From: a virus
Lineage: Duplodnaviria; Caudoviricetes
Length of the DNA stretch: 50,993 bases
Strand: one strand, 5' to 3'
Virus record (IMG/VR): IMGVR_UViG_3300005732_000004
Span: 1 to 50,993 of that record
The notes beneath the pieces were generated by a model that ran no database searches, had not been told where the DNA came from, and was given only the letters and a program-made list of their open reading frames with translations. Below, one piece after another: positions 1,357 to 13,460 of this stretch (its first letter is position 1; every line of letters begins with the position of its first letter). The position numbers were made by a program, and so were the translations under genes.

Positions 1357-1547
1357 GAGCGTACCTTGAGGATATTCAAATCAAAATCGCGGCTATTCTC
1401 ATGCACTGATTGGTCTGCGAATGATTTGGTAATTAATGTTTTTTCTGGGACATCACGCGCCGCACGTACAAGCTTATCTAGGTCCAGCAATTCGCGATCA
1501 GTTGCGATGATTGTAACGTCACCGTTTGCGGTTTGTTCAATTTTCAT
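1353..1547 (-). CDS. hypothetical protein
   Basis: ATGA overlaps with neighbours. Confidence 0.7.
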   Translation of the reverse strand: MKIEQTANGDVTIIATDRELLDLDKLVRAARDVPEKTLITKSFADQSVHENSRDFDLNILKVRS

Positions 1548-1897
1548 CGTCCTGCCTCATACCAATCTAGCATTGCGTTCAACGCCGCTGCTTCAAGTTT
1601 GTCCTGAGTGTTTTCAGCCATTGCGTGGTGCGCCTCAGCCATTTCGCGTAGCCCTGCGATCACTTCCGGCTTTATTTCTGGGCGTTGCTTGTTGACCATC
1701 AGTTCTGATAGGGCGTGAGAACGCTTCACGGCTGCAGCTTCACCAGCTACCATGCCTTGCTGGTAAGCAGCTTGAAGGGCTTCGCGCATTGAAAGGTACA
1801 GACCCTTGGTATCAATCCCATCATCCCCGTTGTTGCCTAAAATTACGTGCTGCGCCATCTTCTTGAAGTCTGGCTTATCTGTGATTGGGTTGGTCAT
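1544..1897 (-). CDS. hypothetical protein
   Basis: ATGA overlap, GAGGA RBS. Confidence 0.75.
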   Translation of the reverse strand: MTNPITDKPDFKKMAQHVILGNNGDDGIDTKGLYLSMREALQAAYQQGMVAGEAAAVKRSHALSELMVNKQRPEIKPEVIAGLREMAEAHHAMAENTQDKLEAAALNAMLDWYEAGR

Positions 1898-3414: not shown

Positions 3415-3457
3415 TGCTTTACCCTCATATCTGCTATTGTTTTAATGTCTATAAACA

Positions 3458-3499: not shown

Positions 3500-3943
3500 A
3501 TGAAAATTATAGAACAACAAGCAATCATTGCGCAGCGTATTATGCAAGATCATGCAACACAAGAACAGCGGGATATATGCGCCTATGCACTAAGGGTTTT
3601 GGGCAACTCACGAAATACTAGCGGGATATGTTCACGCTTCAATCTTATGGCGATTATCATTTATGGGGTTGTCGTTTATCATACCAAATCAGCGCGGGTT
3701 GAGCTTAAACATACGTTTGGCGCTGAAAAAATGGCGTTAATCGAAAGCGTTGTTAACCATGATAACCCTAAATCTAGGCTAGTAGCCAATGCGAAAGCTG
3801 CGCTTCTACTAGGTAAGGCTTCGTTTCTTATCGCGCATAATGGCAGTTCTGATGATATCGAGCATTTGAAACAACAAGTGTTTAGCATTACCTCGTTAAG
3901 TGTCCCGATGAAACATGAGGCTAAAAAGGTCTTGGGAATGTGA
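3500..3943 (+). CDS. hypothetical protein, possibly a degenerate HD-domain (RelA/SpoT hydrolase-like) fold
   Basis: Lone plus-strand ORF; spacing pattern ELKHTFGAEKMALIESVV...AHN resembles HD_4 proteins but lacks the HD residues. Confidence 0.6.
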   Translation: MKIIEQQAIIAQRIMQDHATQEQRDICAYALRVLGNSRNTSGICSRFNLMAIIIYGVVVYHTKSARVELKHTFGAEKMALIESVVNHDNPKSRLVANAKAALLLGKASFLIAHNGSSDDIEHLKQQVFSITSLSVPMKHEAKKVLGM

Positions 3944-10200: not shown

Positions 10201-10410
10201 TTATTTGATTATTTCCAACTGTGTAGCGTTAAAATGCGGAGAAAATGGTATGCACGCGTAGGTTAATCTTTCATCGTGCATTGTCGCGGATGCACCAGCT
10301 TTATCGCACATTTCAAGTGTGTAATTGTATAAGTGTTGCCTTTCCATTTCGACGGGTTTGCTATCCGCTGATGTGACTAGTAATAATATTACTATCCATG
10401 TTTGCGTCAT
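10201..10410 (-). CDS. small secreted or membrane-anchored protein
   Basis: Hydrophobic N-terminus, two Cys, GAGGG RBS. Confidence 0.7.
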   Translation of the reverse strand: MTQTWIVILLLVTSADSKPVEMERQHLYNYTLEMCDKAGASATMHDERLTYACIPFSPHFNATQLEIIK

Positions 10411-10439
10411 CTGTTCATTCCCTCATTGTTTCGTTGTGT

Positions 10440-10516
10440 TGGCGAACGCGGCAGGATTCGAACCCACAACCTGTTGACTAGAATTCAATTGCTCTATCCA
10501 GTTGAGCTACGCGTCC
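10440..10516 (-). tRNA. tRNA-Arg (anticodon UCU)
   Basis: GGACGCG-TA-GCTC AACTGGATA GAGC-A-ATTGA ATTCTAG TCAAC-AGGTT-GTGGG TTCGAAT CCTGC-CGCGTTC-G-CCA; A20 Arg identity element; encoded CCA. Confidence 0.9.
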
Positions 10517-10526
10517 TTGTTGCCCC

Positions 10527-10556
10527 ATTAGTTGCATATCTGTTTTGGGGTGTCAA
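10527..10556 (-). promoter_or_regulatory. promoter for the tRNA and downstream operon
   Basis: TTGACA at 10551-10556 with a weak -10 (ACTAAT) just upstream of the tRNA. Confidence 0.5.
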
Positions 10557-10644
10557 CATCATTTATACATCAATATTGCATCTCTTAATGTTGCATAGTT
10601 ACGTTATTATGTATATTGTTGTTTTGAACACAACGGAGAAACAA

Positions 10645-10848
10645 ATGAAAAAACGCATTCCTGTAGCACTAAATGACGCGCAATATAACGATATTTCAAA
10701 CGCGGCTGAACATTACGGGCTAACGCTATCCGCGTTCATGTGCATGGCTAGTCGTGAAAAGGCGGACCGAGTCAATAGCATTCAAGAAGCGCGGCCCTAC
10801 ATCTCTAACAACGTTGTAAGCGCACCTATCAATGGAAAGGAAGGGTAG
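10645..10848 (+). CDS. ribbon-helix-helix-like DNA-binding protein
   Basis: Likely start MKKRIPVALND after GGAG RBS; RHH pattern AAEHYGLTLSAFM. Confidence 0.7.
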   Translation: MKKRIPVALNDAQYNDISNAAEHYGLTLSAFMCMASREKADRVNSIQEARPYISNNVVSAPINGKEG

Positions 10849-11515: not shown

Positions 11516-11704
11516 ATGAAACTTGATTTTGAAGGATGGACTTCGACAAGTTCACATGAACGAATTTGGCTTTGGCAGATGTGGGGAATGCGCCCGCTGT
11601 TTGTGCTGTGGTACAAGATGGGTGGCAAATATCTATCGGGCTGGACCCCGTTTGTCGTAAAGATAAACCGTCCTGTAGATAACACTAAACAAGGGAGTGA
11701 GTGA
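11516..11704 (+). CDS. Trp-rich hypothetical protein
   Basis: AGGAG RBS. Confidence 0.65.
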   Translation: MKLDFEGWTSTSSHERIWLWQMWGMRPLFVLWYKMGGKYLSGWTPFVVKINRPVDNTKQGSE

Positions 11705-11705
11705 G

Positions 11706-11864
11706 ATGGATAATGATTCTGACGAAATCGAATGCGCGGTAGAAATGCTGCGCCTAATCAATGGCGGTAAAACACCCGCTAAAGTTCGCCTCGCGCTAAA
11801 GCAGTCAGGCTATACGGCAGAACAAATTGCGATTGCCGGACAAGTTCTAATAGACGCTCAATAG
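11706..11864 (+). CDS. 52-aa hypothetical protein (not in ORF track)
   Basis: MDNDSDEIECAVEMLRLINGG...; GGGAG RBS; followed by a terminator hairpin. Confidence 0.6.
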   Translation: MDNDSDEIECAVEMLRLINGGKTPAKVRLALKQSGYTAEQIAIAGQVLIDAQ

Positions 11865-11866
11865 AA

Positions 11867-11897
11867 CAAACCCCCGAACCAATGGAACGGGGGCTTA
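11867..11897. terminator. hairpin between converging units, likely a terminator
   Basis: CCCCCG/CGGGGG stem; followed by TTTGTT on the minus strand. Confidence 0.6.
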
Positions 11898-11899
11898 TA

Positions 11900-12436
11900 A
11901 AGAACTAACCCGTACACCGACAAACAAGATGATCAAACTTGATGCACTATTTGGTGCAGTGGGGTTAGTCATAAAGCAAGGCCGAAGCCTTGGGCCTACC
12001 GACACGCGATAGGTGGGTGATGTTATTAACACGCCGTCTTAGTTAATCACTCGGTCCTTAGACTTTATCGAGCCAGACTGGTCCGCTGGGCCTTGGTTGT
12101 GTACCATTCAGGATTTATAACCATTAAGTCTGAGCTTTTCGACAATCTCAGAATACCCGGTCACCCACGATGTTAAACTGTTATTACTGTAGGCAGGGCG
12201 CTAATCCTGCTTGCTGCAAGTACCACGGCTTACTGGGAACCCTAACCCCCGAACAAATCTTTAGGCTTTCGCCAAGGATTGAACCAACTATGCAGTCATT
12301 CACGTGACCTAGTGCTTCTGCTTTCAGCACCGCTACAGTAATTTGTTTTTGAAGCCGCCGAAACCAAAGTTACCCAAGGTTCATCCCGTCCATATAGGTA
12401 CGGGGGGCACGGACGCGGCTTCAAAACTCGATTTAT
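11900..12436 (-). ncRNA. multi-domain structured non-coding RNA unit
   Basis: No ORF of 60 aa or more; own promoter and terminator; four tandem domains closed by 8-12 bp stems plus a C(UUCG)G hairpin. Confidence 0.7.
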
Positions 12437-12440
12437 AGCA

Positions 12441-12469
12441 ATCATAAAACATGCAGCAATACACGTCAA
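12441..12469 (-). promoter_or_regulatory. sigma70-type promoter of the ncRNA unit
   Basis: TTGACG-17 nt-TATGAT. Confidence 0.75.
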
Positions 12470-12497
12470 CAAAAAAGACCCGCCATAACAGCGGGCC
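12470..12497 (-). terminator. intrinsic terminator after the gapR-like gene
   Basis: GGCCCGC/GCGGGTC stem followed by TTTTTT on the minus strand. Confidence 0.8.
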
Positions 12498-12527
12498 AGT
12501 TTCTACCTGGGGAGGGATCAGGCAGGG

Positions 12528-12809
12528 TTATTCGGAATCGTCGTCTTGATCACCAGCCTCAAACAACGGCAACATGCCAAGCGCTTGCTTATAGAGGTCA
12601 AGAACTGCCTCTTGTTCTGATCGCTCGTGCGGCTCTTGCTTGCGGAGCTTGACGATTTCTCGCATTGCCTTTGGATCAAAACCGCCGCCCTTGGCTTCAG
12701 CATAGACATCGCGGATATCGTCAGAGATTGATTTTTTCTCAGCCTCAAGAGTTTCTATGCGTTCTATAAATGCGCGGAGTTGTTCACGAGCGATTGTTGA
12801 ATTACCCAT
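12528..12809 (-). CDS. gapR: GapR/DUF2312 (UPF0335) nucleoid-associated DNA-binding protein
   Basis: [36 protein letters not shown]...[10 protein letters not shown]. Confidence 0.9.
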
Positions 12810-13221
12810 TTTCTGCTTTCCTTAGTTTTCCTAAAACGTATTTCGATGTTCTCAAAATCTTAGCCCATACGCTCAATTCTTCTGATCGTATCGTAACTAG
12901 AACATGATCATTGTCCCAATACTCAACATCAAACTTGACTAGATACCGATCATCTGGAGATACCTTTGATTCGCCCAAGAGGTCGTGAATTGGCTTAACC
13001 ATATTATCGAGGTCAAAGCTATTTGCAGATGCGGGAATACGTATTGAACTAGACCAATAGCACAACGGCATTCTAGGCAGTTTTTTGGCCTTTATTTCCC
13101 ATAACGCCGCATCATGCCATGCTTTGTATTCCGCCGTTCTGCTACCCGCGCCCTTGCCGTATCGGTGGAGTTTGTTTGCACTTGTCGGGGTGTTACTGAT
13201 CTTTAGCGTTATCTGCATCAA
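12802..13221 (-). CDS. rusA: RusA-like Holliday junction resolvase
   Basis: [18 protein letters not shown] and DDRYL motifs. Confidence 0.8.
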
Positions 13222-13378
13222 GCTTTTTCTTTGCTGCTAAAATCCAGTGCGCAAGCTGTTGAGTGCGTTGAAGCCGATTTGAGCTAGCCACTTCTTTGAA
13301 CGCCTCCCATTCGGCATCTGTAAGATATACAGACCGTCCACGCGGCTTATCTTCGTAGGGCTTTATTTTATCCGCCAT
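13193..13378 (-). CDS. ribbon-helix-helix-like regulator
   Basis: RSVYLTDAEWEAFKEVA pattern; first gene after a divergent promoter region. Confidence 0.65.
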   Translation of the reverse strand: MADKIKPYEDKPRGRSVYLTDAEWEAFKEVASSNRLQRTQQLAHWILAAKKKLDADNAKDQ

Positions 13379-13460
13379 TTATAACAATCTCCTGTTGCCA
13401 AATTAAAATCAATGTGCAATAACATGTATATCAATATCACAAAGATAGCAAGAGGGTAAT

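Follow-up and report, generated by a model that had tools for sequence, protein, structure and literature searches.

What occupies the gap of some 570 nucleotides (nt) that separates two converging gene sets in the Caudoviricetes phage recorded in IMG/VR as IMGVR_UViG_3300005732_000004? The window, by which we mean the whole stretch of DNA analysed, is this record at its full length (50,993 bp, linear, estimated 91% complete). An initial annotation, made from the letters alone, had proposed that the minus strand of the gap carries a dedicated non-coding operon of tandem structured RNA domains. Part of this stands: no long open reading frame (ORF) is present, folding is biased towards the minus strand, and changes in a relative, contig L082, preserve structure; but domains 3 and 4 are absent from L082 and the interior of domain 2 folds poorly. 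The evidence partly supports an undescribed non-coding RNA (ncRNA) locus, forming its own unit on the minus strand between two terminators. We hold, with moderate confidence, that positions 12469-11865 constitute a stand-alone ncRNA gene of ~545-570 nt, a chain of stem-closed modules that is probably cut into stable pieces.

The arrangement of closing stems is far above chance, and this observation is both real and statistically strong. Four perfect inverted repeats, of 12, 10, 8 and 8 bp, lie side by side and close domains 1 to 4; all of the annotated coordinates hold (Table 1). Together the stems sum to 38 bp, a total reached in none of 1000 dinucleotide shuffles (mean 7.3, maximum 34), and no other 576-nt stretch of the record scores as high, the best unrelated one reaching 29. 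Folding of the 576 nt points to one strand: the minus-strand fold has an energy of -193 kcal/mol (z -2.92, 0/100 shuffles), compared with -173 kcal/mol (z -1.85, 5/100 shuffles) for the plus strand. Moreover, GAAA and UUCG loops and G-U pairs read correctly on the minus strand only, in agreement with what had been noted of the tetraloops on the promoter strand, and the C(UUCG)G hairpin was found where it had been described. Hardly any pairing between domains is predicted in the fold of the whole unit. Two finer details were not recovered, since neither the five inner hairpins described for domain 3 nor the three-way junction described for domain 4 appears in the minimum-energy fold. The longest ORF touching the region is 58 amino acids (aa), consistent with the earlier statement that none reaches 60 aa.

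L082, a 6214-nt metagenome contig and mosaic sister of the window, is the sole relative of the region found. It retains the promoter hexamers, domain 1, the outer frame of domain 2, the 3' terminator and the adjoining 55-aa gene (92-96% identity), and two blocks are swapped. Inside domain 2, 98 nt in the window stand against 191 core-bearing nt in L082; the block comprising domain 3, the UUCG hairpin and domain 4 occupies 272 nt in the window and 114 nt in L082, where the replacement segment can close too, by a 7-8-bp stem. The recombination breakpoints fall at the borders between frame and interior ('cargo') and in linkers. Contigs with the L082 variant and the same joint are present in one DNA sequencing run (X1), which may or may not be an independent sample. 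Conservation of the stems in homologues had been proposed as a check on the initial annotation: those of domains 1 and 2 are kept in L082, whereas domains 3 and 4 are absent. Judged from this single relative, the changes between L082 and the window together favour an RNA read from the minus strand.

Both ends of the unit could be located. The hairpin and T-run that terminate the gapR operon were detected at 12497-12477, within the stretch originally assigned to them (12470-12497), and this terminator is kept in L082 although the gene upstream differs there. The promoter directly abuts the terminator's tail and ends ~15 nt short of domain 1; L082 has the same two hexamers but differs at two spacer bases. 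At the other end, the annotated terminator hairpin was likewise recovered, and is also kept in L082, where a C-to-U change in its stem yields a G-U pair on the minus strand and an A-C mismatch on the plus strand. The generic features of small RNA genes (promoter, absence of a conserved ORF, U-tailed terminator hairpin) are present and kept in L082, the promoter match being at chance level.

Conservation is highest in domain 1, the leading candidate for a functional RNA of this phage. The domain's consensus fold with L082 is a three-way junction of 25 pairs, none of them changed: four of the five substitutions lie in junction strands, and the fifth removes the outermost pair of the 12-bp stem. 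A 45-nt stretch of the domain is identical in L082 and run X1. Domain 2 had been called tRNA-like, a description that holds for its frame, homologous to that of a T-arm-bearing RNA family described below, but not at the level of a tRNA call by ARAGORN or Rfam. Its 5' frame is homologous to L082 4267-4299 and is the positional equivalent of the acceptor and D-arm of that family; the D-like hairpin shows a compensatory U-A to C-G change in L082, the two other frame substitutions lying in loops. The 3' frame aligns with the family's T-arms. As a whole, domain 2 is not unusually stable (z -0.69). Domains 3 and 4 are additions specific to this lineage.

Table 1. Positions of the features discussed (window coordinates unless a contig is named; z, folding score relative to shuffled sequences)
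Feature	Position	Strand	Details
Terminator of upstream operon (RHH-like, RusA-like, gapR)	12477-12497	minus	9-bp stem, 6 G-C pairs, then TTTTTTG
Sigma-70-like promoter	12441-12469	minus	TTGACG-17-TATGAT; 10/12 consensus match
Domain 1	12347-12426	minus	Three-way junction, 11-12-bp closing stem, two inner hairpins; z -3.81, 0/200 shuffles
Domain 1 closing repeat	12347-12358/12415-12426		Perfect, 12 bp
Domain 2 closing repeat	12183-12192/12333-12342		Perfect, 10 bp
Domain 2, 5' frame	12310-12342	minus	Acceptor-like strand of 10-bp stem and D-like hairpin (GGUGCU/AGCACU)
Domain 2, inner segment ('cargo')	12212-12309	minus	98 nt, window-specific; no similarity to L082
Domain 2, 3' frame	12183-12211	minus	T-arm-like hairpin (CAGG/CCUG) and 3' strand of closing stem
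Domain 3	12013-12168	minus	8-bp closing stem; z -2.28, 4/200 shuffles as good; window-specific
Domain 3 closing repeat	12013-12020/12161-12168		Perfect, 8 bp
C(UUCG)G-capped hairpin	11977-11992	minus	Stable tetraloop on minus strand only; not in L082
Domain 4	11904-11969	minus	8-bp closing stem; z -3.76, 0/200 shuffles; window-specific
Domain 4 closing repeat	11904-11911/11962-11969		Perfect, 8 bp
3' terminator hairpin of the unit	11871-11893	minus	Then UUUGUU; z -4.61, 0/200 shuffles
RHH-like 61-aa gene	13193-13378	minus	First gene of minus-strand operon
RusA-like resolvase gene	12802-13221	minus	
gapR	12528-12809	minus	PF10073, E 2.5e-35
55-aa orphan gene	11697-11864	plus	Convergent; ends 6 nt before the unit's terminator hairpin
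tRNA-Arg(TCT)	10440-10516	minus	ARAGORN and Rfam; sole tRNA of the window
Match to L082 3728-3923	11705-11900		96% identity
Match to L082 4038-4075	12173-12211		95% identity
Match to L082 4267-4520	12310-12563		92% identity
Match to L082 4799-5209	13084-13493		89% identity
Family member, CUS-3	L100 1348-1565		
Family member	L102 1358-1564		
Family member, D6	L103 ~1476-1600		
Family members, IMG/VR	L104-L171		68 loci

Beyond L082, the region was without relatives in the collections searched. No match was found by blastn in 50,697 phage records or 72,556 plasmids, nor by blastn and nhmmer in 80 GapR-anchored IMG/VR loci or in 72 loci of the tRNA-like family. Exact 20-24-mers of domain 1, the domain 2 frame, the domain 2 interior and domain 3 each had 0 occurrences in IMG/VR. 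An 18-mer of domain 1 gave 16 matches in 185,579 species genomes against ~17 by chance, none extending beyond 24 nt, and in 401 sampled genomes of one class (centred on a Hyphomonas genome) eight had weak matches, 9/9 of the places lying inside long ORFs. A second metagenome match, L083, was rejected as a 21-nt chance match. The homologue search proposed at the outset thus returned one relative, L082, but none from the phage, plasmid, IMG/VR or species-genome collections. The 80 GapR loci show no similar ORF-free gap after gapR, by a test that is crude in GC-rich DNA. At gathering threshold, Rfam 15 matched only the tRNA-Arg in the window; with E up to 10, positions 11600-12700 gave terminator-type noise at the edges and one chance match to a small nucleolar RNA, and no tRNA. 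That the unit belongs to no recognised family was therefore borne out by the covariance search, and since there is no Rfam match the locus is not ROOL, GOLLD, c4, 6S, Y RNA, tmRNA, a group I intron or a known ribozyme.

What is most valuable here is the lead, through the sister contig, to a widespread and unannotated family of tRNA-like phage RNAs. A BLAST search of phage records with L082 domain 2 (L082 4047-4299, minus strand) gave a 32-nt perfect match in very different phages. Found in at least nine phage records, the family occupies the non-coding gap between the Q antiterminator and holin genes in coliphages CUS-3, IME10 and Huey; it is also present in Escherichia phage Jgk1 and Acinetobacter phages SR and NL, and lies inside a tRNA array in Pseudomonas jumbo phage D6. 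Its core pattern, UAAAACGAGGCGUCGNNACACGCCUAUC, was recovered from 68 IMG/VR contigs, which with four earlier loci make 72 stretches (55 distinct sequences, 21 types at 90% identity). Hosts of the phages include E. coli, Acinetobacter, Aeromonas and Pseudomonas as well as uncultivated hosts. The CUS-3-type element occurs in 119 of 5426 complete E. coli genomes, placed there between Q and the lysis genes, and is without annotation in 12/12 of the matches listed. L082 domain 2 is 82% identical over 250 nt to another member, L147.

Alignment and anchored parsing of 18 representatives revealed a common plan. A closing stem of 7-15 bp, of which ~14 different sequences occur, is followed by a hairpin placed as a D-arm would be, the conserved AAUC(A/G), helix 'h' and GAGA; then comes a variable interior of ~100-200 nt with covarying helices of its own, and the 3' part runs in the order UAAAACG, 6-bp hairpin, 3' strand of h, T-arm and 3' strand of the closing stem. 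The core is near-invariant and 28 nt long. The acceptor-like stem, helix h and the T-arm covary across ~20 distinct types that have them in common with L082 domain 2, the inner pairs of h occurring in GC, AU, UA, CG and GU forms; within a nine-sequence subfamily, 12 of 36 predicted interior pairs show double changes. Outer stems are not in register in the MAFFT family alignments. L107, L131, L135 and L169 have a canonical T-arm (GGUUCGAAUCC or near); in the others, L082 among them, it is degenerate. Phage D6 has a minimal, circularly permuted copy of ~110 nt, with the core strand first and the AAUCAG...GAG strand second, its ends lying in a distal 8-bp stem rather than the acceptor-like stem.

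Members are often found in or beside tRNA arrays. By ARAGORN, six of 18 loci have tRNA genes, in five of them within ~120 nt of the element and on the same strand; none of the elements in these 18 loci received a tRNA or tmRNA call of its own. The elements match no family of Rfam 15, and the full-text literature yielded no description of the family, in a search that ran outside the supplementary tables of the viral-RNA catalogue of Fremin et al. 2023 (PMC10690425), whose 10,006 candidates may already include it. The idea that the element is a group I intron within a tRNA was discarded: Rfam intron models failed to match at any of three E limits (10, 1 and 0.1), and the exon-like parts have no anticodon loop. 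Nor was there a recurrent protein partner in 75 of 105 flanking ORFs from 19 of 20 representative loci, the ORFs of L100 being left out: no PHROG family was found in more than 3/75, terminase and portal being commonest. Separately, the Rfam tRNA model matches L135 5151-5304 end to end (154 nt, 49 bits), which would make it a phage tRNA gene interrupted by ~80 inserted nt, on a contig that also holds a family member and a tRNA array.

How does the window relate to this family? Its domain 2 frame (12310-12342 and 12173-12211) aligns with the family frame in L082, to which it is 92-95% identical, and one pair differs in a compensatory way. Inside this frame the window has no counterpart of the AAUC...GAGA strand, of helix h or of the 28-nt core, the interior being an unrelated 98 nt: the core had 0 matches in the window at up to three mismatches, and the window went unmatched by family nhmmer profiles at E up to 10, whereas L082 is recovered at 7e-61 by a leave-one-out profile. 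Because the defining interior is missing, domain 2 of the window is not to be filed as a family member. L082 carries an ordinary member, and for this reason the full element is likelier to be ancestral. In the window the cargo was probably exchanged or destroyed and, with the core replaced by unrelated, poorly folding sequence, the family function has probably been lost.

For a gene of this kind we infer the following working, in transcription, processing and action alike. The sigma-70-type promoter just behind the gapR terminator would drive the unit, the primary transcript starting ~8-10 nt before domain 1 and ending at the 11871-11893 hairpin. Its first module would be the three-way junction, the conserved 5' part, and its second would be built on a tRNA-derived frame, which in L082 carries the core of the widespread family. 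The long closing stems may guide processing and confer stability, as in the precursors of tRNAs and in tRNA-like RNAs, a proposal made by analogy with the family members in tRNA arrays, with YrlA RNAs and with phage immunity RNAs processed by RNase P. If RNase P or RNase E cut the short A/U-rich linkers, several stable small RNAs could be released that act in trans, most plausibly by protein binding. Complementarity to other parts of the phage does not exceed 13 nt, which is chance level.

Several observations weigh against this reading. The annotation's near-consensus promoter, TTGACG-17-TATGAT, is present at 12469-12441, but the match alone is not above chance: sites with at least 10/12 matches number eight in the window against 12.1 expected in shuffles, and three promoter-like sites occur locally against 3.8 expected. 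The DNA carries the same perfect inverted repeats as any RNA read from it, domains 1 and 4 also fold significantly on the plus strand (z -3.03 and -2.88), and no CCA-like tails lie 3' of the closing stems. The inner 98 nt of domain 2 have a z of +1.69, with 194/200 shuffles folding at least as well. Three of the five changes in domain 1 would break pairs of the minimum-energy fold computed from the window only; since the consensus fold was chosen with both sequences, the structural support for this domain is modest and partly circular. Domains 3 and 4 and the UUCG hairpin are not conserved, and with one independent relative, 4-8% diverged, a recent common ancestor may account for the 92-96% identity without selection.

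The main rival, a lesser though serious possibility, is that the locus is a decaying remnant in which an ancestral family RNA, still encoded by L082, lost its interior by illegitimate recombination, leaving a coreless frame with domains 3 and 4 and at most domain 1 functional. The family core is indeed absent, the sequence in its place folds worse than shuffles, and none of the collections searched holds a homologue of domains 3 or 4; moreover, the retained parts are as similar to L082 as the flanking genes are, so that their identity need not reflect purifying selection. Decay accords less well with the perfect 8-bp closing stems and significant folding of domains 3 and 4, with a stem set far beyond chance, or with the intact promoter and terminator, and the stem that closes the L082 replacement segment suggests that a module architecture is maintained. 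Domains 2-4 of the window copy may be decayed.

It is improbable that the unit is one large ornate RNA, unprocessed and working as a whole in the manner of ROOL or GOLLD. Similar size (~570 nt), a phage location with a tRNA gene 1.35 kb away, the many GNRA and UUCG loops and the stability of the whole-unit fold would all suit such an RNA, but Rfam gave no match to ROOL, GOLLD or others at E up to 10, almost no pairing is predicted between domains, and a single cooperative fold is hard to reconcile with the exchange of half of the RNA between close relatives. Improbable, too, is an element acting in DNA, whether a recombination hotspot or an origin-like or protein-binding region. The symmetry of perfect inverted repeats in DNA, the clustering of mosaic breakpoints in the region and its place between convergent operons near RusA, exonuclease and Rad52-like genes would fit such an element; against it stand the strand-specific tetraloops and G-U pairs, the U-G change in the L082 terminator, the homology of the domain 2 stem to the covarying acceptor-like stem of an RNA family, the absence of iterons or direct repeats above chance, and a distance of 5 kb to the replication genes. 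Least credible of all is that the region encodes small proteins, for although minus-strand ORFs of 58, 48 and 45 aa exist, the 58-aa ORF begins ahead of the -10 box, the 48-aa ORF has GCG in place of its GTG start in L082, the conserved 5' part of L082 lacks any minus-strand ORF of 40 aa or more, and the other ORFs fall in non-conserved segments.

Returning to a non-coding gene of stem-closed modules, a bolder version, unlikely but worth stating, is that the locus is a natural 'tRNA-scaffold' cassette: a tRNA-derived frame that carries swappable cargo, the sister's cargo being a new RNA class, either a ribozyme or a decoy for a host protein. If so, the frame would recruit the host machinery that processes and stabilises tRNAs, related phages would swap the cargo, and the sister's cargo would have a near-invariant 28-nt core around a three-way junction, found both in a tRNA frame and, in minimal permuted form, in a jumbo-phage tRNA array; a decoy would bind its target, a host tRNA-directed or defence protein, with high affinity. 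Structured RNAs of phages are far less charted than phage proteins, and the locus shows an RNA gene built of exchangeable stem-closed modules. The family, carried by E. coli strains in culture collections, is a concrete and testable candidate for a new functional RNA class; with its core lost and a single relative, the window itself is of smaller value, a rare and possibly degenerate variant.

On the plus strand runs a series of small orphan genes, of which the 55-aa gene is the last; exonuclease and Rad52-like recombination genes lie to the right of the unit, and DnaB-like helicase and primosomal genes 5-8 kb to the left. Searches of the 50,993-bp record for an integrase, a resolvase, a reverse transcriptase (RVT_1) and Ro60/TROVE gave no match, the TROVE search giving matches in control genomes. 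The hosts of the window phage and of its close relative L082 look alphaproteobacterial. The 55-aa gene was inherited together with the RNA unit: its protein has no Pfam or PHROG match, and the L082 copy is its sole homologue among 5.8 billion proteins. No relatives of the 55-aa and 61-aa neighbour proteins were found in the viral, metagenome or genome contigs searched.

The 61-aa protein is identical in the two phages (L082 4909-5094) and has no IMG/VR relative; it resembles a small DNA-binding regulator and faces a divergent promoter region at 13379-13460. L082 is without gapR and has in its stead a longer RusA-like gene (L082 4485-5072) ending in ..D.DDDSE with the same terminator; since this gene shares the last residues and the terminator, recombination at gapR has its joint within the final codons. 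The tRNA-Arg(TCT) gene is absent from L082, where 18 unrelated bases (3434-3451) stand instead, a precise presence/absence with flanks aligning at 95-98% identity. A listed 148-aa ORF (10402-10848, plus strand) overlaps the tRNA gene on the opposite strand, the true gene start probably being near 10640; its C-terminal part resembles a 69-aa L082 protein (3520-3729), both ending in ..INGKEG.

Among known systems, domain 2 comes closest to the tRNA-like family, with which it shares an acceptor-like stem, D-like and T-like hairpins and, with L082, its place in the unit; as a tRNA proper (RF00005, ARAGORN) it is not called. YrlA-type Y RNAs, which occur also in phages (Chen et al. 2014, PMC4201824), join a tRNA-like module (T-arm, D-arm and acceptor-like stem; an RNase P substrate) to a second functional module. 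They differ in being Ro-adjacent, whereas the window has neither a Ro60/TROVE gene nor an Rfam match, and the two ends of the YrlA RNA lie in its Ro-binding stem, those of domain 2 in the acceptor-like stem. tmRNA similarly sets an acceptor stem and T-arm frame around a large structured insert; the window has no tag reading frame or pseudoknot series, and ARAGORN and Rfam make no such call. A retron ncRNA would have an adjacent reverse transcriptase, and this is absent. ROOL and GOLLD are likewise large, ornate, phage-borne and often near tRNA genes, but did not match at E up to 10, and the window locus is modular, half of it being exchangeable. The phage immunity RNAs c4 of P1/P7 and CI of P4 are cut from longer transcripts by RNase P; the T4 tRNA cluster includes the stable 'species 1 and 2' RNAs, and engineered tRNA scaffolds stabilise inserted RNA. 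Although c4, CI and the T4 species have no sequence or Rfam relation to the unit, and the window phage offers no significant complementary target, what they and the tRNA scaffolds have in common with it is the plan proposed here: stem-closed RNAs released by the tRNA-processing machinery.

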